Shown: positions 23,469-64,000 of the stretch, one piece after another
Layout of the letters: the number at the start of each line of letters is the position of its first letter
Numbering within the stretch: the stretch's first letter is position 1
NCBI GenBank assembly: GCA_016861245.1
Contig: BOKZ01000001.1
Location: 415,746-479,745 of the forward strand
Length of the DNA: 64,000 nucleotides
From: Patescibacteria group bacterium
Lineage (GTDB): Bacteria > Patescibacteriota > UBA1384 > 2-12-FULL-50-11
Reading direction: 5' to 3'
Made by a program: the position numbers and the translations under genes
Notes under the pieces: generated by a model
The model's input: only the letters and a program-made list of their open reading frames with translations
Databases searched by the model: none
Told to the model about the DNA's origin: nothing

Positions 23469-23850
23469 AGGGCCTGTCACGGCTTCGACGGGAACATTTA
23501 CAACTAAAGCACGCAAGCGGAGAGGACACGCCTTATCGTCCACAATTAACGTGCAAACGTTTTTGCAAAAGCTAAAGCTTCGATCGCGCAAGCTTTCGCG
23601 CCTAGCTTTGCTCCAGCAGTAGCGTAACGCTCACTGCCGTTTCAATAATCGATGCTACTACATTATTGAGGCGCTATATTTGTAGCTAGACGACGTCGCT
23701 GTGTCCGACGTTGTTCGAATCTCTACACTGCTCTATCGAAGTATTTCGTTTACTTCAAGCCTCGATAGCTAAGAAATTAAGTAAACTACGCTTGTAGACA
23801 CTTTAGTTGTTCGTTTTCGGACGCGGGTTCAACTCCCGCCAGGTCCACCA
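23469..23850 (+). ncRNA. ssrA: Transfer-messenger RNA (ssrA/tmRNA).
   Basis: The 5' end GGGCCTGTCACGGCTTCGACGGG matches the conserved tmRNA start (cf. GGGGCUG...UUCGACGGG). The 3' end is a tRNA-like T-arm and acceptor, GGACGCGGGTTCAACTCCCGCCAGGTCCACCA. The 5' and 3' ends pair as an acceptor stem. An internal Ala-rich tag ORF GCA AAC GTT...GTA GCG TAA (23553-23627) encodes ANVFAKAKASIAQAFAPSFAPAVA. Confidence 0.8.
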
Positions 23851-26930: not shown

Positions 26931-27051
26931 TTACACAAGAATAGCAACTGTGAATGCGTTGTCAAAAATTACTCACTGAGTCTTGATCTCCTCTTCACGA
27001 AGCGATATAATTGTCGGTGCCCTTAACCCAAGTGGTTAAGAAGGAGTACCT

Positions 27052-27444
27052 ATGCTTGAGAATCCGATTACCATTGCCGTGCCCTCGCCGCGAGGCGATT
27101 GCCAGTTGATCGACGACGTTGTCGTCCAACTCGGCCAGCCCTGGAGAGGTCACATTCGTCAGTTTCAAGAGACCGAAGACGGTTTCGAGGGCGTCTTGTC
27201 GCTTGGCTGCGGGGATATCCCGGTCAGACTGAGCAGAAACACCCAACAAGGGGATATCGTCATCAAAGCTGAGCCCACTGGTAAGGTTGGCCAGCGATTC
27301 TCGGGGACTGGAGGCCTGTTTAGGGTGAACCCCTATAACGAATACGACAGCTCGACGCATCGAGGCGTCGTCAAGCTGGTGACGGGCTCGATCAACCACT
27401 ACCTGGAACAGCTGGCGCGACAGCGCAGCTACCAACCGAAGTAG
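27052..27444 (+). CDS. Hypothetical protein in a GC-rich (~65%) patch.
   Basis: 130 aa, with an AAGGAG RBS 7 nt upstream and a clean terminator downstream. Its composition is very different from the flanking DNA. Confidence 0.45.
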   Translation: MLENPITIAVPSPRGDCQLIDDVVVQLGQPWRGHIRQFQETEDGFEGVLSLGCGDIPVRLSRNTQQGDIVIKAEPTGKVGQRFSGTGGLFRVNPYNEYDSSTHRGVVKLVTGSINHYLEQLARQRSYQPK

Positions 27445-37114: not shown

Positions 37115-37477
37115 GTGACGGTTATGCACAAATCACTATTGGTTTTCCTCGTCCTCGTGATTGGAATCGTGTCGGCCTCGGCACAAACCAACGCACGAAC
37201 CTGGGAGTTGAAGAGCAGCTACGAGCTCCAGTACTCTCAGCCGCGACTTCGCTTCCTTGATTTCGACCCGTTCCAGAGGGACCGGGGCTTGAATCTCTAC
37301 TTCTCTGGCTACCGGCGGGATCCTTTCTACCGAATCAGCGCGTTTGACAGACCGAGTCTGTACAAGGAGCGATTCGGAATTGGTTTCCAGTCAGAGCGGA
37401 TGGAACTCAGCTTCTCCACTGGGAAAGTGGAAGACAGGGGCAATGTCACGAGTGCCGGCTTCAGCATTCGCTGGTAA
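37115..37477 (+). CDS. Small secreted hypothetical protein (GC-rich ORF).
   Basis: 120 aa. Signal peptide MHKSLLVFLVLVIGIVSASA. Followed by a hairpin plus T-run terminator at about 37480-37520. Confidence 0.35.
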   Translation: MTVMHKSLLVFLVLVIGIVSASAQTNARTWELKSSYELQYSQPRLRFLDFDPFQRDRGLNLYFSGYRRDPFYRISAFDRPSLYKERFGIGFQSERMELSFSTGKVEDRGNVTSAGFSIRW

Positions 37478-44689: not shown

Positions 44690-44737
44690 TTCCGTTTTCC
44701 GTGCTACTTGTTGCGTGTGCTACTATTGAGAAACCGA

Positions 44738-46540
44738 ATGTGCGGAATAATCGGCTCGATTGGTCATAAGAAAGTTGTTAACGACGTCTTGATCCACGGA
44801 TTAAAACGTTTGGAATATCGCGGATATGATTCCGCCGGCTTAGCAGTATTGACAACAGATGGTCTAAAAGTTGTTAAAAGAAAAGGTAAAGTTACTGAGC
44901 TCGAAGGCGACCAAACGACACAGAAAATTGACGGCAATATTGGTATTGCCCACACACGCTGGGCTACCCACGGCGAACCAAACGAAATTAACTCCCACCC
45001 TCATACAGATTGTGCCGGGAAGATTGCTGTAGTTCATAACGGGATTATTGAGAATTTTTATGCTCTAAAGATGATGCTAGTGAACGAAGGCCATAAGTTT
45101 AAATCGGAAACTGATACAGAAGTATTAGCCCATCTAGTTGAAAAATTTTATAAGGACGACTTAGAAGAAGCAGTTACGAGGTCACTTAAGCTGGTTGAGG
45201 GCGCGTTTGGAATTGCAGTGATTCGCGAAGGCGAAGATAGGATTGTAGTTGCTCGTCGAGGTTCGCCAATAATCTTAGGGGTCGGTCACAAAAAAATGTA
45301 CGTTGCCTCAGACGCACCAGCAGTTTTAGCACACACAAAAAAAGTTATTTATTTAAATGACAACGAAATCGCGTCGCTTTATGAAGATAGCTACACAATC
45401 AAGGACCTAAAGGGCAAAAAAGTAGTTAATGATATCCATGAGATAAAGTGGTCGCTTGAAGAGATTGAGAAGGGCGGATTTGAACATTTTATGCTCAAAG
45501 AAATGCACGAACAGCCAGACGCTATTGCTAACGCACTTCGCGGTCGAATATCTGGAGAAAAAGTAAAGTTAACTGTCAGATTTAAATCCAAGAACATTAA
45601 AAGAATTGTTATTGTCGCCTGCGGAACTAGTTGGCACGCTGGCTTAATCGGTCGATATATACTCGAGAAAATGACTGGAATACCGGTGTCTGTGGAATAC
45701 GCATCGGAATTTCGATACCGCGATCCAATTGTTGATAGCCGTACGCTTGTGATCGCTATCTCCCAATCCGGCGAGACGGCTGATACATTGGCTGCCGTGC
45801 TAGAAGCAAAAAGAAAGGGCGCAAAAACACTTGGGATTATCAACACGGTTGGTTCTACTATCAGTCGCGAAGTCGATTCGGGGGTATTCCTACATGCGGG
45901 ACCAGAGATTGGGGTGGCAAGTACAAAAGCGTTTAGTTGCCAAGTGACCACACTGGTTCTGTTAGCGATCCACATCTGCCAAGATTTAGATAAGAGCGTT
46001 TCTCCCGATATAGCACAGTCTCTCGTTAAGCTACCCGGGTTGATTCGAGAGGTGATCGCTGATCGCAAGAAAATTCAATCGATATCCAAGAAGTATCAAA
46101 AATATACGGACTTTCTGTACTTAGGCAGGGGGATAAACTTCCCAGTAGCGCTTGAAGGCGCGCTCAAACTCAAGGAAATATCGTACATTCACGCGGAAGG
46201 TTATCCAGCAGGTGAGATGAAGCACGGCCCGATTGCAATGATCGATCCAAATTTACCATCGGTTTTTATTACCCCAGACGACGATTCCTACGAAAAAACT
46301 CTTTCGAATATGCAGGAGATCAAAGCGAGGCAAGGTAAAATCATCGCAATTACAAGTATTGAAGATGAAAAACTTACCAAGCTAGCTGACGATGTAATTT
46401 TAGTACCAAACGTCCCAGCCGAAATCTCGCCAATTATCAACAACATTCCGCTACAATTTTTGGCTTATTACATCGCGACCGCCAAAGGAATTAATGTGGA
46501 TCAGCCGCGTAATTTAGCAAAATCCGTAACGGTGGAGTAG
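44738..46540 (+). CDS. glmS: Glutamine--fructose-6-phosphate aminotransferase (GlmS). The true start is MCGIIG.
   Basis: An N-terminal nucleophile Cys directly after the Met, then two SIS domains. 600 aa. Confidence 0.9.
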   Translation: MCGIIGSIGHKKVVNDVLIHGLKRLEYRGYDSAGLAVLTTDGLKVVKRKGKVTELEGDQTTQKIDGNIGIAHTRWATHGEPNEINSHPHTDCAGKIAVVHNGIIENFYALKMMLVNEGHKFKSETDTEVLAHLVEKFYKDDLEEAVTRSLKLVEGAFGIAVIREGEDRIVVARRGSPIILGVGHKKMYVASDAPAVLAHTKKVIYLNDNEIASLYEDSYTIKDLKGKKVVNDIHEIKWSLEEIEKGGFEHFMLKEMHEQPDAIANALRGRISGEKVKLTVRFKSKNIKRIVIVACGTSWHAGLIGRYILEKMTGIPVSVEYASEFRYRDPIVDSRTLVIAISQSGETADTLAAVLEAKRKGAKTLGIINTVGSTISREVDSGVFLHAGPEIGVASTKAFSCQVTTLVLLAIHICQDLDKSVSPDIAQSLVKLPGLIREVIADRKKIQSISKKYQKYTDFLYLGRGINFPVALEGALKLKEISYIHAEGYPAGEMKHGPIAMIDPNLPSVFITPDDDSYEKTLSNMQEIKARQGKIIAITSIEDEKLTKLADDVILVPNVPAEISPIINNIPLQFLAYYIATAKGINVDQPRNLAKSVTVE

Positions 46541-46583
46541 GTTTTTCCTTTAGGGCGACGTAGTGAGAGCTGTTAGAACTTTT

Positions 46584-48815
46584 TTAGATTCTGCTTCTCT
46601 TTAGTAGCAACGAGTTTAAAACAACAGAAATTGAACTTGCGGCCATGGCAGCCGATGCAAAAATAGGGCTAAGAAGTATCCCCCAAATTGGGAACAATAC
46701 TCCAGCAGCGACAGGAACGAGTAATGTGTTATAGCCAAATGCCCAGACTAAATTCATTTTAATCGTTCCCATAGTTTTTCGGCTGAGCCGGATCGCCGAT
46801 GCGACACTACGTAAATCTTTGTTTATTAAAGTAATGTCTGCGGCTTCAATGGCAACATCGGTACCGCTTCCCATCGCTATTCCGTTATCCGCGGCAGCTA
46901 ATGCTGGGGCGTCATTTATTCCATCGCCAACCATCGCCACATGGAAACCATCTCTTTGTAATTTTCGGACTTCGCTTTCTTTGTTCTGTGGCAAAACATC
47001 AGACAAGACATTTCCAGGATTAATCCCAACTTCTTTAGCAATTGCTTCGGCGACTCGGCGATTATCTCCAGTAATCATAAAAACCCTTAGACCTAATTGC
47101 ATGAGCTGGTTAACTGCTTCTTTGGACGTTGGTCGGAGTGTGTCGGCAACAGCAACGATCCCGGCAGCTTGGCCATTTATTGCTACTAGCATCGCAGTTT
47201 TACCTTCACTTTCTTTTTGCTGAAGGATCTTTTCTTGTTCGGGCGAAACAATAATCTTCTGATCTAAAAGCATCGCCCTATTACCAACTACAACCGTATT
47301 ATCTTCAACGACCGCGCTAACACCTTTGCCGGAAACAGAATCAAACTTTATCGGTTTTGACAGGCTAATATTTTTAGATTTAGCCCCTTCGACGATCGCA
47401 GTTGCTAATGGATGCTCCGACAAACTTTCAACAGAGGCTGCTGCTACTAAAACTGCTTGTTCACTTTTTTTCCATGCAATAACGTCTGTGAGTACCGGCT
47501 GCCCGTTCGTTAAAGTACCGGTTTTATCAAAAATAATGGCATTAACTTTATGAGCAGTTTCAAGTGATTCAGCATTTTTTACTAAAATTCCTTTTTCCGC
47601 ACCGCGCCCAGTTCCAACCATAATCGCAGTTGGCGTGGCTAATCCCATAGCACAAGGACACGCAATAATTAAGACCGTCACCATATTTAATAAGGCATAA
47701 GTTAAGTTTGGATTTGGACCAAATGCGTACCACACAACGAATGTTGCGATCGCAACCATAATAACTATTGGAACGAAATACGACGAAACTATGTCGGCCA
47801 TTCGCTGAATCGGTGCTTTAGAGCCTTGAGCATCTTCAACTAATTTGATTATTTGAGCGAGCATCGTTTCGGATCCAACTTTTTCTGCTTGTAATGTAAA
47901 ACTTCCTGATTTGTTCAAAGTAGCTCCGATGACTTGGTCGCCAACTTTTTTAGTTGATGGGATTGATTCACCGGTTACCATAGATTCGTCGACGGCTGAA
48001 GTGCCATCAATAATTTTTCCATCAACCGGGATCTTTTCACCAGGTCGAACGACAATATGGTCGCCTTTAACCACTTGATCGATCGGTAAATCTATTGTTT
48101 CGCCATTTCGAATTACTCGGGCAGTTTTCGCTTGCAAACTTATTAGGTTCTTAATAGCTTGACTAGTACGTTTCTTGGCGACGGCTTCAAGATATCGACC
48201 GAGTAATATTAAGGTAATTACAACAACCGAAACATCAAAATACGGCATTATTTCGGCCTCAATACTCATAAATAAATCAGGCATAAAAGTAATGATTGCC
48301 GAATATAGGTATGCCACCAATGTACCGATGGAGATCAAAGTATCCATATTCGCATTTCGATGTCTTAAGGCTTTGAGAGTGCTTTTATAGAATTGCCAAG
48401 CTGCCCAAAATTGAATTGGCGTTGCGATAATTAATTGAACGTAAAAGTTCTTTAATAGCTCTGGTGCAGTTTCAATTAACCCTGGGAAACTTCCCCATAA
48501 AATTAATAATCCAGCGATTGTGCCAGCGATTATTTTTGGACGCAATGATTTAATTTCTTGCTCGCGCATCATTTCTTGATGATTATGATGAGCTTCCCCT
48601 TCTTTAACAGCTTTATAGCCAGTTCGATCGATCGCTGCGTCTAAATCTTTTCGCTGACATAAAGTTTGATCGTAGGTAATCGTCGCTTTGCCAGTTGCTA
48701 AATTAACATTTGCTTCTTTCATCCCCTTAACTTTTGAAAGAGAACGTTCAATTGTGCGAACACAACTGGCGCAGTGCATCCCCTCAATAACAATAGTTTC
48801 TTTTTTGTGGTTCAT
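46584..48815 (-). CDS. copA: Copper-translocating P1B-type ATPase.
   Basis: N-terminal HMA domain (GMHCASC), a CPC motif in TM6, DKTGTLT phosphorylation site, GDGINDAP. Confidence 0.9.
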
Positions 48816-48918
48816 TTAGTGATGATGATCTTCCGGTTCGTCTTGACTAGATTCACCTAAAAAGAACCAGTAAACAAAAATAATTAATCCAACGCCAATA
48901 ACAATGACAAATAATTTA

Positions 48919-49137
48919 TCAATTGGCATTTGGCGTTGCTTTATAACCGCTTATTTCGTCGATCGCTTCAATAATTTCGTTGGTAGACATTTTCAATTCA
49001 TCAAACTCAATCTCAACCTCCTTTTTTATTAAGTCCGTTCTAACGTTTTTAATAGCGGAGTGATCTTCTTCGAGCCCCTCTAATAACATCAGGCAACTTG
49101 AACAATGAATTTCTGGTACTGAAAAAATTTGTTTCAT
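48919..49137 (-). CDS. copZ: Small heavy-metal-associated (HMA) domain protein / CopZ-like chaperone with a variant metal site.
   Basis: 72 aa. A HCSSC motif in the position of MxCxxC. ferredoxin-like HMA length. Confidence 0.5.
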   Translation of the reverse strand: MKQIFSVPEIHCSSCLMLLEGLEEDHSAIKNVRTDLIKKEVEIEFDELKMSTNEIIEAIDEISGYKATPNAN

Positions 49138-49147
49138 GACTACTCCT

Positions 49148-50293
49148 TTAATCGAATAAAATATTGCCTGTATACATACCCATCGAGCAAGTAAATTTTA
49201 GGAAGCCAGGCTTCTGTGGGGGGATGTTGATTGTTTTTGTGCCTGTTTCTTCTAATACTTCTTGAATTTTCAAGCTAGGAATTACGAACGCACGACTGCA
49301 ACTGTATGTATTGTTTGTTACTAGTATTAATTGCGTTGGAGAATTGGCCTTAGCTTTAAGTATTCTTGGTTCGTAGCCGTAGTCAGTGGCGTTGATAGTT
49401 ACAATTTGACTTATCCCATCTTCGGAACTAACTACTGGAGGTTGGTTAGCCGCTGTATCGTTGGTGTTCTGTGAAGTAATACTTTTAAGTTCCAACCTCT
49501 GCTTATAAGCCGCGTAAGAGATAGGCGAGCCAATTAAATTTAATCCACTTTCTAGCGAGTATAGTGCAAAAATCAAAATAATTACCGCAACAACTTTAAC
49601 GAAGTTGGCGTTTAAACTCTCACTGATACGTGTTGTGAAGTAGGCTAGGATAAAAAATAACGGCGAAGCCCCGACTGTAAACGCAAACATAATTACAGCA
49701 CCATAGAGTGGGCTACCGGTTCCAATTGCCAGAGCCATCATTGCCTGTGTGATGCCACAAGGAATTAACACCGTTAAGGCACCCAAGAAAGCTGGTGTTG
49801 CAAAGTCTTCTTTTCTATTTTTACTCAGCCGACGAATAAACGTTCGAACAAATCTTGGCGGCTGGATTTGGAAGTAACGAAAAATCGGGTGAACGTTTAA
49901 CATCCTCAATGCTGTTCCCAACATGAAAATAGTAATCGCTATCATGAGAACACCACGAGCAATTGGACTTAACTGGATCATAGTTCCTAAGTATCCGAGC
50001 CCAAACCCCAGAATTGTATAAGCGATTATCTTAGATATTAAAAATAAAATAATCGAAAGAGTTATGTTGTTACGGGATGCTGCGCTCCTGGAGTTCGGAT
50101 GAATATTATTGTATCGGTTGAGTAGGTCTTTCTTGGTTGCGGGAGAAATTTGTCCTGGATTTTTTAGATCTGAACTTATTTCATCTTCAGCCTGGTTACC
50201 GATCACATTTGCTAGTAGCCCGCCCTGGACTGCTAAACAACTCAAGCCGCCAGTCGTGAGTCCAGTTAGAAACACAAGCCAAATGTTTGGCAT
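49148..50293 (-). CDS. Membrane permease (DsbD_2/TauE-like 6-7 TM domain) fused to a C-terminal cupredoxin-like copper-binding domain.
   Basis: Gly-rich TM N-terminus (LTGLTTGGLSCLAVQGGLL). C-terminal block ITINATDYGYEPRILKAKANSPTQLILVTNNTYSCSRAFVIPSLKI...FKFTCSMGMYTGNILF, typical of the cupredoxin_1-type domain. It lies within the cop operon. Confidence 0.45.
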   Translation of the reverse strand: MPNIWLVFLTGLTTGGLSCLAVQGGLLANVIGNQAEDEISSDLKNPGQISPATKKDLLNRYNNIHPNSRSAASRNNITLSIILFLISKIIAYTILGFGLGYLGTMIQLSPIARGVLMIAITIFMLGTALRMLNVHPIFRYFQIQPPRFVRTFIRRLSKNRKEDFATPAFLGALTVLIPCGITQAMMALAIGTGSPLYGAVIMFAFTVGASPLFFILAYFTTRISESLNANFVKVVAVIILIFALYSLESGLNLIGSPISYAAYKQRLELKSITSQNTNDTAANQPPVVSSEDGISQIVTINATDYGYEPRILKAKANSPTQLILVTNNTYSCSRAFVIPSLKIQEVLEETGTKTINIPPQKPGFLKFTCSMGMYTGNILFD

Positions 50294-50622
50294 TATTTCG
50301 TAACTCCTTCGGACAGCTCCTCAACTAAGTTCTGAGTGAACTCATTGTTTTGAAGGGAGTAATACACGGTTTGAGCCTGTTTGTTTGATGTAACAATATC
50401 CGCTTCTTTTAGCTTCTTAAGTTGTCGAGATGCGGCTGAGATTGATAAATCCACTAACGTCGCAATATCTGAGACCGAAAGCTCAGGGTGGTGACGGAAA
50501 AGATAGCAGATTTTCATTGCCGTAGGGTCGCCGACTGTGCCGTGACGACGCGCACATGCTCTCACTGATTCGCTGTTTGCAATTTCTTCCTTAATCTTCT
50601 CAAAATCTTTATTTGCGTCCAT
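50293..50622 (-). CDS. ArsR/SmtB-family metalloregulator. The likely start is MDANKDF at 50622; the ORF track used TTG at 50634.
   Basis: Winged HTH (ICYLFRHHPELSVSDIATLVDLSISAASRQLKKLKEADIV). It is the first gene of the cop operon. Confidence 0.65.
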   Translation of the reverse strand: MDANKDFEKIKEEIANSESVRACARRHGTVGDPTAMKICYLFRHHPELSVSDIATLVDLSISAASRQLKKLKEADIVTSNKQAQTVYYSLQNNEFTQNLVEELSEGVTK

Positions 50623-50652
50623 ATGCAAATACAATCAAATTCGTATTTGCAT
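50623..50652. promoter_or_regulatory. Perfect 10-bp inverted repeat ATGCAAATAC-N10-GTATTTGCAT abutting the arsR-family start. Candidate operator of the cop operon.
   Basis: 10/10 complementary arms with a 10-nt spacer, located in the promoter region between tRNA-His and the regulator gene. Confidence 0.5.
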
Positions 50653-50671
50653 GTCAAGGAAAGTACAATTG

Positions 50672-50744
50672 GGCGCTAGACAGGGATCGAACCTGCGGCC
50701 AACCGGACCACAACCGGTTGCTCTACCACTGAGCTACTAGCGCC
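50672..50744 (-). tRNA. tRNA-His (anticodon GTG) with an encoded G-1.
   Basis: G-GCGCTAG-TA-GCTCAGTGGTAGAGC-A-ACCGG-TTGTGGT-CCGGT...GCAGGTTCGATCCCTGT-CTAGCGC-C-C. Confidence 0.8.
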
Positions 50745-51777: not shown

Positions 51778-51859
51778 TCTTCATTTTTATCGTTGAAAGT
51801 AGTATAGTGGACGCCCGTTTGTGGTGATAAACCAGGGCGGTGATCATTAGGAGACAAGG

Positions 51860-52201
51860 ATGACTCAAGTTCTCTCGATCCCTATTAGGGAAATTTCTCT
51901 TCAAGTACGTAGGCATTTCGGTGCCGACAACCAGCAGTTCGAAGGAACGGTCCGTGAGGGCGCGGTTGTGCTCTTCTACGACCACGACGGCGGTTACCCC
52001 GAGGGGTATTTGCTCGATCGCGATTGCGATTTCGATCCAATCAACGTCGAGTGCGGTGATGGGATGGAGGCTAGCTTCTGCAAACTGGGGGTGAGCACCC
52101 CACTCGGCCAAGCGTTGCTCAACCAGAGGGTAGGTGATAAGTTCACCGCAAAGCTGGATAGGGGGTTGCAGCGCAACATCGAAATACTCGCAGTTGGCTA
52201 G
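51860..52201 (+). CDS. GreA/GreB C-terminal-domain-only protein (Rnk-like).
   Basis: 113 aa ending in STPLGQALLNQRVGDKFTAKLDRGLQRNIEILAV, which resembles the GreA FKBP-like domain. A GGAGACAAGG RBS precedes it. GC-rich. Confidence 0.5.
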   Translation: MTQVLSIPIREISLQVRRHFGADNQQFEGTVREGAVVLFYDHDGGYPEGYLLDRDCDFDPINVECGDGMEASFCKLGVSTPLGQALLNQRVGDKFTAKLDRGLQRNIEILAVG

Positions 52202-52216
52202 CAAACAAACGGTTCC

Positions 52217-52250
52217 GGGTGACACAACGGTGTGTCGCCCATTTTTTTGT
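52217..52250 (+). terminator. Rho-independent terminator (GGGTGACACAACGGTGTGTCGCCC plus a T7 run).
   Basis: GC-rich stem-loop followed by TTTTTTT, after the Rnk-like gene. Confidence 0.6.
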
Positions 52251-52296
52251 CTATTTTATGGAAAAAAACAGGTTTGTACTGTAAAATTATCACATT

Positions 52297-52370
52297 GCGC
52301 CTGTAGCTCAGCGGATTAGAGTACTTGTCTTCGGAACAAGGGGTCGCAGGTTCGAATCCTGCCAGGCGCG
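52297..52370 (+). tRNA. tRNA-Arg (anticodon TCG).
   Basis: GCGCCTG-TA-GCTCAGCGGATTAGAGT-A-CTTGT-CTTCGGA-ACAAG-GGGTC-GCAGGTTCGAATCCTGC-CAGGCGC-G. Confidence 0.75.
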
Positions 52371-52426
52371 CAGTAGAAAAAAACAATTAACTAAATTATG
52401 ATCGACTCAGATCCAGGAGGATTTAC

Positions 52427-53053
52427 ATGCCCCTTATTATAGGAGTCGAACGCGATCGGATAATGCGACGTCTTGTGGAAAGTGGAGTGATTCTATCGGG
52501 TCACTTCGAGCTTCATTCCGGTCGTCATAGCGACCGATACCTCGATAAGCGATTATTTATGCAAGAGCTAGTAGAGGAATACGACCAATTTTGTGCGTTA
52601 ATTGCAGATCGAATCGTTACTGAGGGTTACAGCGCGATTGTAGCCCCAGAAGCGGCTGGGATGATGGTGGCGGAACGGGTTCTCGGACATATTCGATCAC
52701 GCAATTACAAAGTTGGTTACGCACCGGCGTATAAAACTGACAACGGTTTCGTGATCGACTCTAACTACAAGCGAGAGATCGCCGGACGGTGCGTCGCCGT
52801 TATCGAGGACGTAATTACGACTGGCGACACAGCGGTAAAAGCTGCTCAACTTGCCCGTTCGATGGGTGCTAGCGTCAACTCTGTTTACTGTTTGTTCGAG
52901 CGTGGAGCTCACCGTCGCATCGGTGGAATACCAATCCATCCCGTGGTTAGCATAGAGTTGCAAGATTGGACTCCGCCGTGTCGGCTATGCGAGCAGGGAA
53001 TCCCGCTTTCACCGAAGCCAATGGGCGGCTCGCAACTTGCCCTTAGCGACTAA
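52427..53053 (+). CDS. Phosphoribosyltransferase, orotate-PRTase-like.
   Basis: PRPP-binding motif VAVIEDVITTGDTAV. The N-terminal ILSGHFELHSGRHSDRYLD resembles PyrE. Confidence 0.6.
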   Translation: MPLIIGVERDRIMRRLVESGVILSGHFELHSGRHSDRYLDKRLFMQELVEEYDQFCALIADRIVTEGYSAIVAPEAAGMMVAERVLGHIRSRNYKVGYAPAYKTDNGFVIDSNYKREIAGRCVAVIEDVITTGDTAVKAAQLARSMGASVNSVYCLFERGAHRRIGGIPIHPVVSIELQDWTPPCRLCEQGIPLSPKPMGGSQLALSD

Positions 53054-53054
53054 C

Positions 53055-53082
53055 CCGCCGTTGGCGGGTACTTTTTTACTTG
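53055..53082 (+). terminator. Rho-independent terminator (CCCGCC-GTTG-GCGGG plus a T-run).
   Basis: Stem-loop then TACTTTTTTA. Confidence 0.55.
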
Positions 53083-53143
53083 CTTCTAGTATCTGGCTGT
53101 GTTTCTATTGGGTTCGAACCGATTCGTCGGTTGTGGAGGGAAA

Positions 53144-54172
53144 ATGTCTGTTATCGAGTTTGATCGCGAGCGAGCGATAGTTATCTTTCGCGATCTTGCC
53201 GCTCGGTGGCAGAATCGCGAAGCGCCCTTTAATACCGAAAAGTTTATCTCACCAGAACGGAAGTACCACCCCAAAGGAGTGACAGTGGGCTCAATCGAGC
53301 ACGCTCAGTTCCTGTTCTTTAGCGGCTGGCTGAATAGAAACGGCAAAACTGCTACCGAGCTGTTTCGTGACGCTCGAAACATCGCAGAGCAGTCACCGTG
53401 GATTATCGATCCGCGCGACTCGCGAAGCTTAGAGCGTGAGCGGTTTGACCTCCTAGAGAGGGTAATACCGTTCGCTAGCCACGAGAAGTACACTGCACGA
53501 GTTGACTGGTGGTACCGAGATTGTATGGGGCTGTTACGAGACACCTATGAGAGTGATCCGAGGAACATCTTTGTAACGGCAGAACTTTCTGGCGACTGGC
53601 GGGCTGATCGAGATTTGCTGTTGAAGCGGTTAATGTCCTTCTTTGGTACCGGACCGAAGATTGCTCAGCTAATTTTGCTTTTCTTCCAGGAAGTTGAGTG
53701 GTTGGACAATCACCAACATCGTTGGGAAGCAGTTCGTCGAGTACCGTCGATTGCGGCCGACATGTGGGTGATGAGACTCATGCGTCAACTAAATATTGTA
53801 GTAAGCTGGGAATCAGACATCTCAACAAAGATTAGTTCTGAAATCTCAGATTTTATCTGCGAGATTTGTTTTGACGAGAGTATCCCACACACTCACCTCA
53901 TTCAAGCACTCTGGCATACCGGTGCCGTGATTTGCGGTCGGATGCGACCAAAAGACCAAACGGTCGCTCGACCGTTCTGTCATAACATTTGTCCAGTTGG
54001 AAAGAGCTGTGTAGGGATCGTTCCGGCCAATTACGTAAGTAACGGCAGGCTCTCACTCTACGCTACGAAAAATGGCAAGCAACGTACCACACAGCGGCTG
54101 GCAAGTCTTCGCTACGACGAGATGAGACCGCATCCGTTAACGTTCGACGACCTCTGGCATGACCCAGAATAA
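53144..54172 (+). CDS. Divergent HhH-GPD superfamily (endonuclease III-like) DNA glycosylase-like protein with a C-terminal 4-Cys cluster.
   Basis: The HhH is LMSFFGTGPKIAQLILLFF. It is followed by VPSIAADMWVMRL, which is like EndoIII PTIAVDTHIFRV (catalytic Asp). Then come C-x14-C-x3-C-x5-C at the C-terminus. GC-rich. Confidence 0.4.
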   Translation: MSVIEFDRERAIVIFRDLAARWQNREAPFNTEKFISPERKYHPKGVTVGSIEHAQFLFFSGWLNRNGKTATELFRDARNIAEQSPWIIDPRDSRSLERERFDLLERVIPFASHEKYTARVDWWYRDCMGLLRDTYESDPRNIFVTAELSGDWRADRDLLLKRLMSFFGTGPKIAQLILLFFQEVEWLDNHQHRWEAVRRVPSIAADMWVMRLMRQLNIVVSWESDISTKISSEISDFICEICFDESIPHTHLIQALWHTGAVICGRMRPKDQTVARPFCHNICPVGKSCVGIVPANYVSNGRLSLYATKNGKQRTTQRLASLRYDEMRPHPLTFDDLWHDPE

Positions 54173-54198
54173 GCCGGCTACAAGCCGGCTATTTTTTT
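54173..54198 (+). terminator. Rho-independent terminator AGCCGGCT-ACAA-GCCGGCT-ATTTTTTT.
   Basis: Perfect 7-8 bp stem plus a T7 run. Confidence 0.7.
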
Positions 54199-54272
54199 AT
54201 TTGACACGCAATTTTTTTGACTGTACGACGAGTATAGGGGATCGTCAGTTCTTTAACCTACAGGAGGGTAAT

Positions 54273-55508
54273 GTGTCAGATTCTACAGCTATCGTTCGCG
54301 GAGAACCGGGGTTTGTCGACCCCTTCAACGTCTGTGTTTTCCGCCAAGTCCGCGATGGCGAGGAATCACACTACCAGGGGATCACGGAGCTTGCAGAGAG
54401 TATCGCCGGGAACCACTTGCTGACTCCCCTCACAATTTGTGTTTGGGACGAAGCTACAACCGAGCAGTACGCGCAACTGATCAAGCAGATCTTCAACGGC
54501 GACGGGGGCTTCGTTTTTGAAGCGAAACAGCCGTACGACGACGGAAAGAATCGAGTCTTAGTTGCCGGCCACCGTCGGCGACAAGCGCTCCATCGATTGC
54601 GGTTTGAGGGTAGCGATGTCTATCGACAAAACTTTCCCGAGCAATCAAGCGAGGAGTGTTTTCTTGATCAGTTCAGAGGAGATCGGAATCATCCGTTGCC
54701 CGGCTTTGTGCCGGCGATGATCTACACTGACATTCCAGCCGAGCGAGGCGTAAGCCTCCAGCTCGAGGAGAACATAAACCGTCGCAATATCTCGTCGCCC
54801 ACTCAAGCGAAAGCGATCAAAGGTCTTTACGATCTAAAAGCGCTGCAGCAAGGGGATGCGAGCCTCAGCATGGCTGAGTTTGCACGGCAGAGCCAGATAA
54901 GTCTCAACGTCGTTCGCGACGCGCTTCGCTTTTGCGAACTGCCGAAATCCATCCGCTACGCGGTAGAAAACGGCGCGTTCAAATGGAGTTGCGCGCTTGA
55001 GCTGACGGTGATTCACCGGATGTTGCGCGAGCGGCCCAAGCCAGACGGAACCCTGCGTGATGCGAAGGAAATCGAGTACACACTGCTCTCGCTCTCAGCG
55101 AGTGAAGCTGCCTCGAAGAATCTTCAGGCGTTTCGCAAGTACCTGCAGACTTGGGTTACTGAAGTGCTTGGACAGCTGGTAATGTTCGAAGAACTAGCGC
55201 TAACTCCTCAACAGATCGCCACCCAACTCTTGGGCGACGAGATGGTTCGAGGGAGCGCTGAGCACACGATCTTTTTGCAGCGCGTCACGTACGCGCTCAG
55301 AAACGGCTGGATCAAGGATGGTAAACTGGTGCCGCTTCATCGTCACGAAGCGAGAAAAGCGATCGCAGCGATACTCGCCGAACAGCGAGCGTTACTGCCG
55401 ATGTTGCAGCTCGTGCTCGACCAAGCAACCGCCGAGGAATTGGAAAACCTCGGCACTGACAGTCAGAAAGCGCTGGACGCGATTTCGGCTCTGGCCGTCA
55501 ATTCCTAA
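54273..55508 (+). CDS. ParB/Spo0J/Noc-like protein with a GHRR (not GERR) arginine-patch variant. It is an orphan: no parA is in the window. Likely GTG start.
   Basis: ParB N-terminal domain ELAESIAGNHLLTPLTICVW...NRVLVAGHRRRQALHRL. ParB-type HTH SQISLNVVRDALRFCELPKSIRYAVENGAFKWSCALEL. The ORF-track N-terminus (54159-54272) overlaps the previous gene and its terminator, so it is discarded. Confidence 0.55.
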   Translation: MSDSTAIVRGEPGFVDPFNVCVFRQVRDGEESHYQGITELAESIAGNHLLTPLTICVWDEATTEQYAQLIKQIFNGDGGFVFEAKQPYDDGKNRVLVAGHRRRQALHRLRFEGSDVYRQNFPEQSSEECFLDQFRGDRNHPLPGFVPAMIYTDIPAERGVSLQLEENINRRNISSPTQAKAIKGLYDLKALQQGDASLSMAEFARQSQISLNVVRDALRFCELPKSIRYAVENGAFKWSCALELTVIHRMLRERPKPDGTLRDAKEIEYTLLSLSASEAASKNLQAFRKYLQTWVTEVLGQLVMFEELALTPQQIATQLLGDEMVRGSAEHTIFLQRVTYALRNGWIKDGKLVPLHRHEARKAIAAILAEQRALLPMLQLVLDQATAEELENLGTDSQKALDAISALAVNS

Positions 55509-55548
55509 CCCGTTTCTCCGTTCGGAGAGCGGGTATTTTTTTACTTCT
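55509..55548 (+). terminator. Rho-independent terminator (CCCGTTTCTCCGTTCGGAGAGCGGG plus a T-run).
   Basis: Imperfect GC-rich stem followed by TATTTTTTT. Confidence 0.5.
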
Positions 55549-55564
55549 CTGGTATTATGCAACT

Positions 55565-55849
55565 ATGGATCAGCAGGAAAAAGACAAGATCTTAGATCGT
55601 CTCGTTGCTTCAATCGAAAAAGCTTATCATCGCCCAGGTCGCTTGATGTGGCGAGGGTTTTTAATCGGACTAGCATCGGGTATCGGTGGGACGCTCGGAA
55701 TCGCACTCGTTATAATATTGCTAACATTACTGGTCGGGAAGTTAGGCGGAATACCGGTTATCGGTGAAGCTCTGAGGGATTTGCTCGATATTATTAATCG
55801 AGGGGCGGACACACAATCGTTTATCCAGTACGTACGACTACTCGTTTAA
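55565..55849 (+). CDS. Small membrane protein (hypothetical).
   Basis: 94 aa, two TM helices (FLIGLASGIGGTLGIALVIILLTLLVG). Confidence 0.35.
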   Translation: MDQQEKDKILDRLVASIEKAYHRPGRLMWRGFLIGLASGIGGTLGIALVIILLTLLVGKLGGIPVIGEALRDLLDIINRGADTQSFIQYVRLLV

Positions 55850-56466
55850 TGGCAGATTGGATTATTGATTTTATTTCTACTGGAGGATATCCGGCGATCG
55901 CGGCGTTGATGCTGCTTGAGACAATCTTTCCGCCGATTCCGTCGGAATTAGTGGTACCGTTTGCTGGATTTGCTGCCGCCCAAGGACGTCTCGACATCTG
56001 GCTAGTTGTAATCTCTGCCTTTGTTGGCTCCGTGTCAGGAGCGTTAGTGTTGTATTGGGTTGGAAAACTGATTAAAGACGAGAAACTAGAGCAATTCGTT
56101 CAAAAGCACGGACGTTGGCTGACGTTAGATGTTGACGACTTACGGAAGTCTCGTCGTTGGTTTGATCGCTATAGTCGAACAGCGGTCCTATTTGGACGAC
56201 TCATCCCAGCGGTTCGATCTCTTATTTCGATACCAGCTGGGATCACTAAAATGAGTATTGTGTCTTTCTTTATATTCTCAGCCATCGGTACCGCTGTCTG
56301 GTCCTCGGTTTTAGCTTGGGCGGGGTACTTACTCGGCCAAGATTACGAGCGAATTCGCCATATTATAGACCCAGTAACTTCGATTGTTGTTTTACTAGTT
56401 GTTGTGATCTACCTATATCGACTTATTTTTCCTAGGCGTAAATCTGGATCAGCTGTAACAGATTAG
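55849..56466 (+). CDS. DedA/SNARE-associated family membrane protein.
   Basis: AALMLLETIFPPIPSELVVPFAGFAAAQG is the DedA signature. Confidence 0.65.
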   Translation: MADWIIDFISTGGYPAIAALMLLETIFPPIPSELVVPFAGFAAAQGRLDIWLVVISAFVGSVSGALVLYWVGKLIKDEKLEQFVQKHGRWLTLDVDDLRKSRRWFDRYSRTAVLFGRLIPAVRSLISIPAGITKMSIVSFFIFSAIGTAVWSSVLAWAGYLLGQDYERIRHIIDPVTSIVVLLVVVIYLYRLIFPRRKSGSAVTD

Positions 56467-56491
56467 GTATAATTTTATTTGCTAGATATTT

Positions 56492-56563
56492 GGGGCATTA
56501 GTTCAGTGGCAGAACAACGGACTCTTAATCCGTGTGTCAGTGGTTCGAATCCACTATGCCCCA
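56492..56563 (+). tRNA. tRNA-Lys (anticodon CTT).
   Basis: GGGGCAT-TA-GTTCAGTGGCAGAAC-A-ACGGA-CTCTTAA-TCCGT-GTGTC-AGTGGTTCGAATCCACT-ATGCCCC-A. Confidence 0.75.
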
Positions 56564-56633
56564 CAGAGTAAATTCGAACCAGTTCGACTGCGACTCGCCG
56601 AACGGCGAGGAGAAGTACTGAGCGAAGCTCAGT

Positions 56634-56650
56634 AATCCACTATGCCCACC
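56634..56650 (+). repeat. Direct duplicate of the tRNA-Lys 3' end (AATCCACTATGCCC plus CAC/ACC), about 70 bp downstream of the tRNA.
   Basis: 14/14 identical core plus similar flanks. This is the same arrangement as at tRNA-Val. Confidence 0.6.
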
Positions 56651-56752
56651 ATTAAATACTGTTAATAACCGTTGATATACTACTAATGGCGGAGTATAAT
56701 TTGCTCCACTCCTGGTTCAACCAGGCGTAGATTACATACAGGAGGTTAACAT

Positions 56753-57688
56753 GTGGTGGAAAAGCTCCCCAGAATCGTAGTTGAGAAGCAAGGGTCGCAT
56801 TCCGAAAACCCGCCGAAGGGTATCGAAGTGCCGATCCGTGACGCATTAGCGCGTCACGGCTTCACGGAAGGTTGCTGGTGCATGAAAGTTCGCATGGTGC
56901 ATGCTCGAGGCGAAAGCCATAGCTACCGCGGTGCGCACTTCAAGGGCCTTCGGAATTACGCTCGTGCTCGTAACGTCATCGACGTTGTGTCACAGCCGGG
57001 CGCCGCACATACGGCTTTCCTAGCAGACCTGATTGTGCCGGACTGTTACGACGCAACTCACGTTCTCAACACGGTTCGACAGATCAACACCCTTGATCCG
57101 AACAAAGACGAGGACCTGGAGATGCTCAAGAAAGCATCGCAGTTCGACGTCGGCGCTTCTGCTAAGAGGCGCAGCAACGAACCCATCGCGTCAGTCCGTC
57201 GAAGCAACGAAGCGCGCCAACAAAGGATCGCTAAGTTCCTCGGTAAGCCAAAAAACATCGACGCAGTCGGAGTAGTGATCCAGCGAGAATCTCTCAACGG
57301 TTCTGTTCCGATCAGCGTCCTGGATAAGGCGATCCGGGAAACGCTGCCGTTTCAAATCTCAAGAGATGAGCTGGCGAGTACGCGAGCGATCTTCGTGTTG
57401 AATGAGGATCTTTTGCAGCCGGGTGATGGCGTGTACCACCTTTCCGAACGCGGCCAACTCTGGATCGAGAGCTTACGTCAGCGTGAGCGCGACAACGAAG
57501 CGTTAGCGCAGCAAATGCAGCAGCAGCTTCTTCGGCGGCAGCTTCAGAAATGCGAACGCAGCCTTCGACAGTTCGACGAACGGGTTGAGGCCGAGCGATT
57601 AGCGAGGCTCGAGACTATCCAACAACTCAAGTCACAGCTCGGGATCTTCGAGCAAGGAAGTGAAGAACATGTATTGGTGTTGAGCTAA
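56753..57688 (+). CDS. Hypothetical protein, GC-rich, with a C-terminal Gln/Arg-rich coiled-coil. GTG start with a GGAGG RBS.
   Basis: 311 aa. GGAGG 7 nt upstream of GTG. C-terminal ALAQQMQQQLLRRQLQKCERSLRQFDERVEAERLARLE. Confidence 0.4.
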   Translation: MVEKLPRIVVEKQGSHSENPPKGIEVPIRDALARHGFTEGCWCMKVRMVHARGESHSYRGAHFKGLRNYARARNVIDVVSQPGAAHTAFLADLIVPDCYDATHVLNTVRQINTLDPNKDEDLEMLKKASQFDVGASAKRRSNEPIASVRRSNEARQQRIAKFLGKPKNIDAVGVVIQRESLNGSVPISVLDKAIRETLPFQISRDELASTRAIFVLNEDLLQPGDGVYHLSERGQLWIESLRQRERDNEALAQQMQQQLLRRQLQKCERSLRQFDERVEAERLARLETIQQLKSQLGIFEQGSEEHVLVLS

Positions 57689-57694
57689 CACAAA

Positions 57695-57722
57695 GCCCCA
57701 GCTAGTCTGGGGCGTTTATTTT
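57695..57722. terminator. Bidirectional terminator GCCCCA-GCTAGTC-TGGGGC-GTTTATTTT between convergent genes.
   Basis: 6-bp GC stem, flanked by an A-rich run on one side and a T-rich run on the other. Confidence 0.6.
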
Positions 57723-58382
57723 AATATATTTACCTGGCTCGATATCGCCAAGCTCAAAGCGACCCAATCGAGTGCGCGTTAGCTGCAATACCTCTATTCC
57801 GACAGCAGCACAAATACGGCGGATGATATGATTTCGGCCATCGTGAATAGTAATAAGAAAATCAATTTTGTTTTGACGAATTTTACGCAGCTCTAAGTTA
57901 TCGATCGTTACTGCACCGTCTTTCAGTTTTATCGGCTGCTGTAGTCTTTCCCAGGCTAGTTCGGGGTTTTTTGTCGATCCGACAACGTGATACTCTTTTT
58001 TATGCTCAAATTTCGGATGAGTAAGTTGATAACACAAATTACCGTCGTTTGTGAGCACTACCAGCCCCATCGTTTCGGCGTCTAGCCGACCGCACGGGAA
58101 GACGCGAGGGATGCTCGGCACGAGACCCGTAACGGTCGGTCGATTCTGAGGATCGTCGGCAGTTGTTATCACCCCTTTCGGTTTATTTAATAGATATACC
58201 ACCGGTTGATCACTGAGTGTAAGTAGCTTGTTGTTGAGTGTGACGTTGTCGTTTTCATTAACTTCGGTTGCGAGATTAGTGCAAATCGCTCCGTTTATTT
58301 TTACCTGCCCGCTAATAATAAGCTCATCTGCTTTCCGGCGAGAAAACTCGGTGGTGCTGGCGATAAATTTATTAATTCTCAT
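57702..58382 (-). CDS. rluB: Pseudouridine synthase of the RsuA/RluB family (S4 domain plus catalytic domain). The likely start is MRINKFIA.
   Basis: S4 RNA-binding N-terminus (MRINKFIASTTEFSRRKADELI). Catalytic Asp motif GRLDAETMGLVVLTNDG. Confidence 0.75.
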   Translation of the reverse strand: MRINKFIASTTEFSRRKADELIISGQVKINGAICTNLATEVNENDNVTLNNKLLTLSDQPVVYLLNKPKGVITTADDPQNRPTVTGLVPSIPRVFPCGRLDAETMGLVVLTNDGNLCYQLTHPKFEHKKEYHVVGSTKNPELAWERLQQPIKLKDGAVTIDNLELRKIRQNKIDFLITIHDGRNHIIRRICAAVGIEVLQLTRTRLGRFELGDIEPGKYIKINAPD

Positions 58383-58467
58383 AACGCTCGAATCATTGTT
58401 ATTGTTCTCCAAATACACTACAACTGAAACATATGATTTCACAAATAGCTAAGGTTGAGGAGGAAAA

Positions 58468-62163: not shown

Positions 62164-64000
62164 AATGAGGAGGGTGGCAACGGCTATTGCTAAGTCCTGG
62201 GCTGGAATTACCCGTGCGCTGGCGTACTATCCGCTCGGTTTTTACCTAGGTTTGTTACTAATTGTCGCAGCCGCGTTTTTATACTGGGCGCAAACGGACC
62301 TAGGTTGGAAATTCGATTGGGTACAATTACAGCGGTGGATATCAAATCACGCCATGGCGATACTAGCCCTGTTTACGGGCCTGCTCGGTTTAGTGCTAAT
62401 CGGAAGCGCGATCGCGTATAAGCAGGTAATTGACCTATCGAAACAGGAGTACGTACTATGGCTCCATCAACGAGCGACGAAAGTACTTTTTCCGGTGTTT
62501 TCTCCGCTGCACGATTGGATCCGTTTGCGCAGCCGAATATATCATTGGTGGCACGCCCAATCGTTCTCAAACGTTACGCACTATTTCTTGCTTGTTATCG
62601 CAATCGGTGGATTAGCAAAAACCACCTTCAACTACATTAGTTCAGCTCAAGCATCACACGGCTGTTCGGATGCGGTAACTATTACTGTTAATACAACCTG
62701 GTCAACGAACCAATGCCACGGTGACGTCGTGATTCGAAACGGAGCAACTCTAACAATTAACGGCGGCGTAACTGCCGATCTGAGTAGCTTAAGCGTCGGT
62801 AGCGACTCCCCGGCAGAGAACGGTTTTATCACGGCGAAAGGTGACACTTTAAATAATCTTGGGGTAGTTCTGAATATTGATGGAAATGTCTATATTCGCT
62901 CAGGAAGTTCAATTAGTGGAGACGGCCAAGGTTTTACCGGAGGCGCCACTGGTGGAGGGAACGGTAATGGGCCCGGTGGTGGTACGGGTTCGGCGACCGC
63001 TCACGGTGGTGGCGGTGGGCACGGCGCAGTCGGCGGAGCTCATACTGGAGGAAGTGATGGGCCGGGCGGTACAGCCTATGGCACATTTGATGGGCCTATT
63101 GCGTTGGGCTCGGGTGGTGGTGGCGCCAACGGCGCCGGAACTAACGGAGCCAGTGCTATTAAGATTAATGCAACTAATTCAACTGTGACAATCAGCGGTA
63201 CGATCAGTTTCAACGGGGATACAACTACCTGTGGAGCAGGTGCTACAGCTCCTGGTGGTGGATCAGGTGGAAGTGTCTGGATCGTAGCAAATACATTGGC
63301 TGGTAGCGGAACGGTTAGGGCTAATGGTGGAAGATGTACGACTTATACCGATACTCCTGGCGGAGCGGGGGGCAGAATATTTATTTCGGCGACGAACGAC
63401 TCGTCGTCATTAACAAAACAAGCATACGGCGGATCCGGTTTGAGCGGGACAACTCATCGCGGCGGTGCTGGTACGATTGTTCACAACAACGCGCTTGCGG
63501 TTGTCAACGATTCGGTTAACTCAACGGGTATCTCCCCATCAACACCGTTTACAGGAAGCAGTTATAGTTTTATCTCGACAACGGTTTCCTATGCTTCAAC
63601 TATTGAACTGGGAGCTGCGACTAGTTTTTCCGGTGGAGCTTTAACAATCAACAACGGCACGAATACATTTAATATTCCGCAGAATATCAGCTCCGAACCG
63701 ACATTTTCTTCGATAAACATAGCATCCGGAGGCACACTGAGACATCCGGCAAATAGTAGTACCCATTCTTACTCATTAATACTAGCTTCGACCGGGGCAG
63801 TCACTGTTACAGGTAACGTGACACTTGATGGACTGGGCTATACAGGTGGAGGAGTTAATACGGCCGGAAACGGTCCCGGCGGTGGGCTTGGTTCCGGCAC
63901 GGGATGTGGTGGCAGTGGTGCCCATGTCGGTAATGGTCAGGGTGGTGTGGGTGTGTGTGGTAGTGGTGGAGCAAACGGTGGCACGGCATATGGCACAGTG
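62164..64000 (+). CDS. Giant membrane-anchored, Gly-rich repeat surface protein, partial (continues past the window end). Not in the ORF track because there is no stop in the window.
   Basis: The frame is open from ATG 62164 to 64000 (more than 612 codons). It has three N-terminal TM helices and then repeated units of about 290 aa containing NGPGGG...GSG...GGAH...GGSDGPGGTAYGT / GGANGGTAYGTV blocks. This looks like a beta-helix / adhesin-like architecture. Confidence 0.55.

Follow-up and report, generated by a model that had tools for sequence, protein, structure and literature searches.

A conserved ParB-like and glycosylase-like gene pair in a native chromosomal block of a Berkelbacteria-like bacterium

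A stretch of 64,000 nucleotides from contig BOKZ01000001.1 of a Patescibacteria group bacterium (assembly GCA_016861245.1; hereafter the window) was analysed, with the focus on the patch at 51.8–57.7 kb and on two neighbouring genes inside it. One of them encodes a 342-amino-acid (aa) protein similar to the HhH-GPD DNA glycosylases, and the other a 411-aa ParB-like protein. The patch belongs to the native chromosome of a Berkelbacteria-like bacterium of the candidate phyla radiation (CPR) and was inherited vertically; a few small spots next to tRNA genes are variable. Comparative genomics supports the gene pair as an undescribed ParB-like/glycosylase system that is not a defence island. According to the favoured reading, which was given a probability of about 0.45, the native block holds a conserved module in which a nucleoside triphosphate (NTP)-gated ParB-like clamp would work with a divergent EndoIII/AGOG-like glycosylase/lyase.

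The conserved gene pair and its two proteins

The pair and its transcription signals are arranged in the window as follows.

53144..54172, + strand: 342-aa protein of the HhH-GPD superfamily, EndoIII/AGOG-like and glycosylase/lyase-like
54172..54190, + strand: intrinsic terminator between the two genes, 8-pair stem with 6 GC pairs, then a T-run
54273..55508, + strand: 411-aa orphan ParB-fold protein
55517–55533, + strand: terminator-like stem after the ParB-like gene, weaker than the others of the patch (7 pairs, 4 of them GC)

The linkage of the two genes was evaluated in 15 independent lineages that have a member of the HhH-like family. A ParB-like family member directly adjoined the HhH-like gene in 13 of these lineages, and the arrangements covered all orders and orientations.

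HhH-like then ParB-like, same strand: window/L006, L004, L001, L009, L015
ParB-like then HhH-like, same strand: L008, L012, L013, L014, L021
Convergent: L017, L018, L019

L006 is a contig of a metagenome-assembled genome (isolate DTUPAT3), L001 and L007 are from Berkelbacteria RIFCSPLOWO2_01_FULL_50_28, and L004 is a relative more distant than L006, with approximately 72–82% nucleotide identity to the window. A possible tandem of ParB paralogues in L001 (404 aa ahead of 403 aa) was dismissed, as the preceding gene was the HhH-like orthologue. The flanks of the pair varied and were of the housekeeping type, including rpsB-tsf-pyrH-frr-rseP-proS, dnaG, purA with uvrB-uvrA, and BipA. Moreover, the pairwise identities of the two proteins were correlated across the lineages (r 0.71; Mantel test, 0/5000). 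A functional module of two proteins is suggested by the conserved adjacency, by this co-divergence and by the retention of motifs for catalysis and nucleotide binding. Literature searches on ParB with glycosylases, Berkelbacteria or CPR gave no description of such a pair. The ParB-like protein had few close relatives, and the named ones were all Candidatus Berkelbacteria.

The 342-aa protein had no Pfam match even at E ≤ 10 and lay below the gathering score of PF00730. Its lone NCBIfam match was MutY, which was non-significant (E 0.089), and no NCBIfam match to Nth was obtained. The exhaustive HMMER search defined a family of 409 representatives at 50% identity (E ≤ 1e-3), 61 of which were at E ≤ 1e-30, far larger than a word-indexed search had suggested. 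Conservation was examined in two alignments, one of 11 members and one of 108 representatives. Nearly all members were without a Pfam match, with weak matches to PF00730 in 1 and to AGOG in 5 of the 108. When the 108-member profile was compared with the PDB, the matches were D. radiodurans EndoIII (E 6.4e-4), AGOG (5.5e-3) and NTHL1 (8.7e-3). The profile alignment placed GxGhKIA on GVGVKTA and PVDiHvmR on PVDTHVHR, in the register that had been obtained by eye and with hhalign. In this register K172, within GTGPKIA, aligns with the lysine of GVGRKTA/GVGVKTA, which is the position of K120 in Nth. The registers of the alignments with E. coli Nth and B. subtilis Spo0J were independently confirmed by the PDB profile searches.

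The catalytic residue D206 was invariant over the 108 members, and K172, G168, C264, C283, P284 and C289 were conserved in at least 90% of them. C264, C279, C283, C289, K172 and D206 were all invariant over the 11 members. The features of the HhH-GPD superfamily were found, namely a helix-hairpin-helix, a Gly/Pro-rich loop, the catalytic aspartate and a two-domain helical fold. The four cysteines of the window protein are spaced C-X14-C-X3-C-X5-C, in a region where the AlphaFold2 (AF2) model is of low confidence. The retention of the hairpin lysine, the catalytic aspartate and the four-cysteine cluster indicates that the protein is most likely a [4Fe-4S] bifunctional DNA glycosylase/apurinic-apyrimidinic (AP) lyase, as judged from motifs and fold. 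It is concluded from the alignments that the protein represents a new, unmodelled HhH-GPD family with a predicted bifunctional glycosylase/lyase dyad and a probable, oddly spaced Fe-S cluster. The substrate could be a damaged or a modified base. A canonical Pfam HhH-GPD gene was located at 4757–5668 of L017, 1.8 kb from the pair; hence, the new family is additional to the standard base-excision glycosylases in at least one genome.

An assignment to the queuosine-5'-monophosphate glycosylase QNG1/DUF2419 (PDB 7ugk, 7u07), in a salvage route with the phosphoribosyltransferase (PRTase) encoded upstream, was also considered. It had support from the fold, and sequence membership in DUF2419 was not found. 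This assignment was rejected because the EndoIII-like lysine/aspartate register and the Fe-S cysteines point to an enzyme of DNA, and because the PRTase was unlinked to the pair outside the clade of the window.

The start of the ParB-like gene had been placed at ATG 54159. This position was replaced by GTG 54273, which lies behind an AGGAGG Shine-Dalgarno sequence, according to the alignment of homologues and the sequence itself. The 411-aa protein consists of an N-terminal ParB/Srx NTPase domain, a ParB-type helix-turn-helix (HTH), which was the best conserved region, and a helical C-terminal region of approximately 170 aa. Box I (Q25/R27), box II (GHRR) and box III (LEENINR) were recognized, and the Q/R of box I, the G..R of box II and the E-N of box III were invariant down to 21% identity. 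Box II varied in the family among GHRR, GERR and GECR. The protein belongs to the ParB/Srx superfamily by its N-terminal fold with the phosphate-binding motif GxxR in box II. It scored 28.2 bits against TIGR00180 (cut-off 58.45) and had no Pfam ParB_N match. The boxes I–III, the ParB-type HTH and the long helical C-terminus suggest that the protein is most likely a nucleotide-gated DNA-binding switch or clamp.

The lack of a ParA partner, which the earlier note had pointed out, was confirmed. The deviant Walker A motif of ParA, KGGxGK[ST], did not occur in the window, no ParA/CbiA gene was present in the related loci, and the ParA-binding motif (L/F/I)G(K/R)G(L/F/I), as defined in PMC12704722, was absent from all 12 partner proteins. 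An 18-bp perfect palindrome at 53959 was considered as a parS site and was discarded, as it was not kept even in L006, which is 94% identical. Separately, the spacer that divides the HhH-like gene from the ParB-like gene in L009 contains a perfect palindrome of 20 bp, CCGATGCAATATTGCATCGG (1793–1812); no other locus shared it, and it could serve as a terminator or as an operator. The distant partner proteins of L008 (5700–6911), L012 (1597–2799), L013 (6477–7865) and L014 (6486–7859) carry a CxxC...(10–14)...C insertion right after box II, which is possibly a metal-binding knuckle. This insertion is degenerate in the clade of the window, where just C129 is left.

Neither protein reached the thresholds of the models for ordinary ParB and for Nth/HhH-GPD. 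The suspicion of the earlier note, that the two genes form an undescribed ParB-like/glycosylase-like system and not a partition module, is supported by the adjacency, the co-divergence and the lack of ParA and of its binding motif.

The proposed role of the pair and its alternatives

In the mechanism proposed by analogy, a dimer of the ParB-like protein would load on DNA and would close upon NTP binding. The closed clamp would then recruit, retain or activate the glycosylase on double-stranded DNA. Genome maintenance is favoured over phage defence as the setting because the gene contexts are housekeeping. A more specific and distinctly less probable version was also formulated, in which the pair would be an unrecognised base-excision machinery. 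The ParB-type NTP-gated sliding clamp would carry or license a dedicated Fe-S glycosylase/lyase, and one-dimensional scanning of the chromosome would be coupled to excision. It has long been asked how glycosylases locate their rare target bases within a genome.

Several observations weigh against the proposed module. The mechanism is derived from adjacency and homology. The two genes of the window have a strong terminator between them, and the pair is convergent in three lineages; the genes are therefore not co-transcribed, and the linkage is not kept for co-transcription. The search for a parS-like site gave no palindrome common to the window and six related loci. The arginine of box III was not conserved in the distant ParB-like members, and NTP hydrolysis may therefore not be universal. 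In addition, the cysteine spacing of the glycosylase-like protein differs from the canonical C-X6-C-X2-C-X5-C, in the region that was modelled with low confidence, and both AF2 models were of moderate confidence overall (predicted local distance difference test score of approximately 70). Finally, no ParB partner was detected on the short contigs of L022 and L023, which hold the most distant HhH-like members sampled; the neighbouring proteins there (468, 344, 216 and 149 aa) had no Pfam matches. The partnership may end at this fringe of the family.

The strongest competitor, though an improbable one, is a regulatory model, in which the ParB-like protein would control transcription of the glycosylase gene in cis, in the manner of KorB, VirB or DndB, and the adjacency would be kept for regulation and not for a partnership of the two proteins. 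The protein would bind near the pair, spread or slide, and thereby control the expression of a potentially mutagenic enzyme. NTP-switch regulators with a ParB fold exist (VirB and KorB), and DndB has been named as belonging to the ParB-like family (PMC10164549). The separate transcription of the two genes and the high conservation of the HTH would suit such a regulator, and a protein that spreads in cis would need to be adjacent, in whatever orientation. However, the search around the pair in six related loci gave no conserved operator or palindrome, and the strict co-divergence together with the long conserved C-terminal region exceeds the needs of a simple repressor. The locus L013, on a contig of 460 kb, has a single ParB-like gene followed by two tandem glycosylase paralogues (7941–8942 and 9019–9990). 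This arrangement fits the regulator and the partner models alike.

Somewhat less probable still is an anti-phage or type IV restriction-like module, in which the ParB-fold NTPase would sense DNA and the glycosylase would excise modified bases from invaders. The DUF262 domains of GmrSD, BrxU and SspE sense or scan DNA, and the glycosylase Brig1 excises modified bases of invading DNA. ParB-fold NTPases are common in modification-dependent defence, as in SspE and DndB (PMC10164549). Furthermore, the family is sporadic, with just 2 GTDB species representatives found by a pattern scan, and the two genes of the pair vary in their order. On the other hand, PADLOC gave no match for either protein of the pair (its only match was a weak ShosT-like one for the PRTase), and the single PHROG match was a weak one of the ParB-like protein to a ParB-like partition family (E 1.2e-5). 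Two scans of 2.9 million viral contigs gave no relatives. The neighbours are ribosomal, replication, purine and UvrAB genes and not defence genes or integrases, and the synteny is stable within Berkelbacteria. The protein also has the canonical ParB architecture with an HTH and not DUF262, and it lacks the DGQHR motif. The defence-island flavour that the earlier note had seen in the pair was thus not upheld.

It is unlikelier again that the two proteins have independent functions, that is, a diverged ParB of chromosome organisation or segregation and an ordinary base-excision enzyme that are neighbours by accident. Both come from housekeeping superfamilies, each gene has its own terminator, and orphan ParBs without ParA are widespread (PMC12704722); nevertheless, the adjacency survives at least five genomic contexts, order inversion and convergent rearrangement, down to approximately 22% identity, the divergence of the two proteins is correlated, and the second, canonical HhH-GPD gene of L017 indicates that the family is not the standard Nth.

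The native block and its variable spots

The other features of the patch and its borders are listed below. The tRNA genes were identified with ARAGORN and Rfam, and the proteins by Pfam, NCBIfam, PADLOC, PHROG and PDB profile and fold searches.

50671..50743, − strand: tRNA-His(GTG) (ARAGORN, Rfam), bounding the conserved block on the left; neighbourhood shared with L001 and L004
50779..51777, + strand: PfkB-family sugar kinase (PF00294, E 3.3e-38), 45.6% GC, native; syntenic in L001, L004 and L006
51860–52201, + strand: GreA/GreB-C (Rnk-like) gene, 113 aa (PF01272, E 2.4e-8), within the variable cassette 51827..52212
52217..52240, + strand: intrinsic terminator after the Rnk-like gene, 10-pair stem with 6 GC pairs; conserved in L006 and L004
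52297..52371, + strand: tRNA-Arg(TCG) (ARAGORN, Rfam); same block in L001 and L004
52427..53053, + strand: PRTase, OPRT-like, below family cut-offs (TIGR01367, E 1.4e-17, 63.9 bits with a cut-off of 150; PF00156, E 7e-4)
53053–53069, + strand: terminator after the PRTase gene (stem scan)
55565..55849, + strand: DUF5665 small membrane protein (PF18910, E 3.8e-10), native; syntenic in L001, L004 and L005
55849..56466, + strand: DedA/VTT-domain protein, UptA-like (PF09335, E 4.4e-24; NCBIfam UptA, E 1.7e-49, below cut-off), native
56492..56564, + strand: tRNA-Lys(CTT) (ARAGORN, Rfam); present in L001, L004 and L005
56549–56561 and 56635–56647, + strand: direct repeat of the tRNA-Lys 3' end, ATCCACTATGCCC, with a three-hairpin insert between the copies
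56753..57688, + strand: 311-aa protein with a coiled-coil-like C-terminus, accessory gene
57695–57713: bidirectional terminator after the 311-aa gene
57702..58442, − strand: RluB-type pseudouridine synthase (PF00849 and S4 domain), native, right border of the patch

The three tRNAs read from the sequence (His, Arg-TCG and Lys) were confirmed by both programs. The gene identities held in part: Pfam and NCBIfam recovered the Rnk-like/GreA-C, PRTase, DUF5665 and DedA proteins, and the HhH-GPD-like and ParB-like proteins were supported at the superfamily level only, by profile and fold.

The guanine-plus-cytosine (GC) content of the patch was compared with the mean of the window, 46.4%. It was 47.0–53.1% in 1-kb windows and 50.2–51.7% in 3-kb windows, the maximum of the whole window (z of approximately 1.7–2.35). 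The rise described in the earlier note is therefore real; however, it amounts to approximately 4–6 points and not 10–15, and it is not continuous, because the genome-typical genes for DUF5665 (46.3% GC) and DedA (45.8% GC) interrupt it. Values of 55–58% were confined to 300-bp windows inside the ParB-like, 311-aa and Rnk-like genes. The ParB-like gene has 54.1% GC (z 1.9) and 61.6% at third codon positions (GC3), the 311-aa gene 55.2% (z 2.2; GC3 62.5%), the PRTase gene 51.7% and the HhH-like gene 50.2%. Three equally GC-rich genes occur elsewhere in the window, at 26995–27435 (56%), 37115–37477 (54%) and 62877–63188 (58%). The lowest-GC segment of the window (46–51 kb, 40–41%) lies directly upstream of the patch and exaggerates the apparent jump. 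After GC normalisation, the tetranucleotide usage of the patch was ordinary (z from −1.85 to +0.85).

The statement that the terminators of the patch have long GC-rich stems was borne out. The scan gave 26 terminator-like sites in 50.0–59.5 kb, with 10.9 ± 3.5 expected, and GC-rich stems of 7–10 pairs with 6 GC pairs follow four + strand genes, the Rnk-like, PRTase, HhH-like and 311-aa genes. In contrast, the scan of 30–50 kb showed no enrichment of terminators and no stem with at least 6 GC pairs.

The synteny of the patch was conserved in the relatives. L006 was collinear with the window over 18.6 kb at approximately 94% nucleotide identity, and L004 had the same gene order from BipA to ThrRS. 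The block comprises the genes for PfkB, GreA-C-like, PRTase, HhH-like, ParB-like, DUF5665, DedA, DsbA and FolD, with tRNA-His, tRNA-Arg(TCG) and tRNA-Lys(CTT), and its counterpart in L004 showed approximately 75–80% nucleotide identity. L001/L007 showed a rearranged order (PRTase, HhH-like, ParB-like, GreA-C-like, PfkB, DUF5665, DedA, DsbA, FolD), in which all three tRNAs shared one neighbourhood with the block genes, although the proteins were just 41–53% identical to those of the window. Moreover, the GC3 of the pair was elevated in the orthologues, at 0.635/0.633 in L001 (neighbour mean 0.549) and 0.511/0.611 in L004 (neighbour mean 0.448). The GC excess thus belongs to particular genes and has been retained from lineage to lineage; it is not a mark of recent transfer. 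No integrase was found among the window proteins with Pfam, and no mobility gene with Pfam or PHROG. The synteny with the tRNAs, the GC3-rich orthologues and the ordinary tetranucleotide usage indicate that the block is native and vertically inherited.

These results contradict the lateral acquisition at tRNA loci that the earlier note had proposed, for which it had itself named conserved synteny with core genes as a contrary finding. A genomic island at 51.8–57.7 kb inserted at the tRNA genes is very improbable and largely refuted: the highest GC of the window, the three tRNAs, a duplicated tRNA-Lys 3' end resembling an att scar, and a 311-aa gene and Rnk-like cassette that differ between close relatives are outweighed by the synteny, the typical genes inside the patch, the shared GC3 excess, the lack of detected mobility genes and the fact that the truly deviant, variable segment is the low-GC copper-ATPase cassette at 46.5–50.6 kb.

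The segment at 46584–50634, with 44708–46540, has 40–41% GC and a tetranucleotide z of up to +2.6, and it deviates more in composition than any other part of the window. Adjoining tRNA-His, it holds genes for a heavy-metal P-type ATPase, an HMA chaperone, a membrane protein with DsbD_2 and cupredoxin domains and an ArsR regulator. The region 44690–50666 had no counterpart in L004, where approximately 2 kb of other genes lie between BipA and tRNA-His. If an island is sought, this metal-resistance segment is a stronger candidate than the GC-rich patch. The GC rise beside tRNAs is no island here, and its contrast comes largely from the adjacent low-GC cassette.

Variation between the patch and L006/L004 was limited to three small spots: the Rnk-like cassette, the insert after tRNA-Lys and the 311-aa gene. 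At 51827–52212, the 113-aa Rnk-like gene is replaced in L006 and L004 by a gene of 184 aa that has no Pfam match and no detectable similarity to it; the flanks of the cassette, the following terminator and tRNA-Arg were unchanged across the swap. The 3' end of tRNA-Lys is duplicated at a spacing of 86 bp, with two matches of ATCCACTATGCCC where 0.04 were expected. The repeat is exact over 13 nt and extends to approximately 17 nt overall, and the second copy is followed by ACCA. The stretch between the copies can form three small hairpins, and the 86-bp insert matched no Rfam family. L004 has this arrangement, whereas the 94%-identical L006 lacks it. The arrangement could be a scar of the att type, left by an integrative element, or else a small insert that is mobile or structured. 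The 311-aa protein has a Q/R/E-rich, coiled-coil-like C-terminus, just 3 homologues in 5.8 billion clusters, and no Pfam, PHROG, PADLOC or PDB match. Its gene lies downstream of tRNA-Lys in L006 and L005 (57% identity, same position) and is absent in L004. A 283-aa gene of L001 was compared and is not its orthologue. In L004 only, an open reading frame of 99 aa with 60% GC and no homology (11377–11676) stands between the ParB-like gene and DUF5665. Elsewhere in the window, a tmRNA gene was detected at 23470–23850 (Rfam, 119.9 bits), for which ARAGORN predicted an unusual tag peptide, DATTLLRRYICS.

Comparison with known systems

The chromosomal ParB/Spo0J, Noc and KorB proteins, which are cytidine triphosphate (CTP)-gated DNA clamps, share box I (QxR), box II (GxRR) and box III (EN), followed by the HTH, with the 411-aa protein. 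The 411-aa protein differs from chromosomal ParB in having no ParA gene, no ParA-binding motif and no parS found, in an insertion of approximately 30 residues with conserved cysteine after box II, and in the longer C-terminus (approximately 170 aa). DndB and DpdB have the motif DGQHR/DGQQR, whereas the 411-aa protein has GHRR/GERR and no Dnd or Dpd match in PADLOC; no dnd or dpd genes were present in any of the contexts of the related loci inspected.

Compared with EndoIII (Nth) and AGOG, the 342-aa protein does not reach the Pfam thresholds for HhH-GPD and AGOG, and its family has an insertion of approximately 15 residues between the HhH motif and the aspartate and an extra N-terminal helical region. 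The cysteine spacing of the family is C-X14(-26)-C-X3-C-X5-C, in contrast to the canonical spacing of EndoIII and MutY given above. To our knowledge, adjacency to a ParB-like gene has not been noted for Nth or AGOG, and it is near-constant in the 342-aa family. The present work defines this HhH-GPD family (approximately 400 clusters) and its partner ParB-like family. Both families are missed by surveys based on PF02195 because they are invisible to Pfam; a survey of the ParB-CTPase fold built on PF02195 made no mention of glycosylases (PMC12704722).

The closest functional parallels are two experimentally supported systems in which an enzyme that processes the bases of double-stranded DNA requires a ParB-fold NTPase encoded beside it, and the proposed role of the pair is an analogy to them. 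ATP hydrolysis by DpdB is required for the transglycosylase DpdA (PMC10164549), and a phage ParB is required for the activity of the thymine dioxygenase 5mYOX176 on double-stranded DNA, where its activating effect is specific (PMC13229309). ParB-fold NTP switches are increasingly seen to activate DNA base-modifying enzymes, and the pair would extend this principle to base excision. If so, the glycosylase would be the third enzyme class dependent on a ParB-fold partner, after the TGT-like transglycosylases and the Fe/2-oxoglutarate (2OG) dioxygenases, and the first ParB-dependent case in the housekeeping genome maintenance of reduced-genome CPR bacteria. The pair is a small two-protein system that is amenable to direct tests in vitro. 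The systems differ in the partner enzyme, which is an HhH-GPD glycosylase here, a TGT-fold transglycosylase in DpdA and an Fe/2OG dioxygenase in 5mYOX. The ParBs of 5mYOX are without a DNA-binding domain and DpdB has DGQQR, whereas the 411-aa protein has an HTH and GHRR/GERR. Furthermore, DpdB–DpdA and ParB–5mYOX are located in phage or restriction-modification clusters, whereas the present pair stands among the chromosomal housekeeping genes of CPR bacteria.

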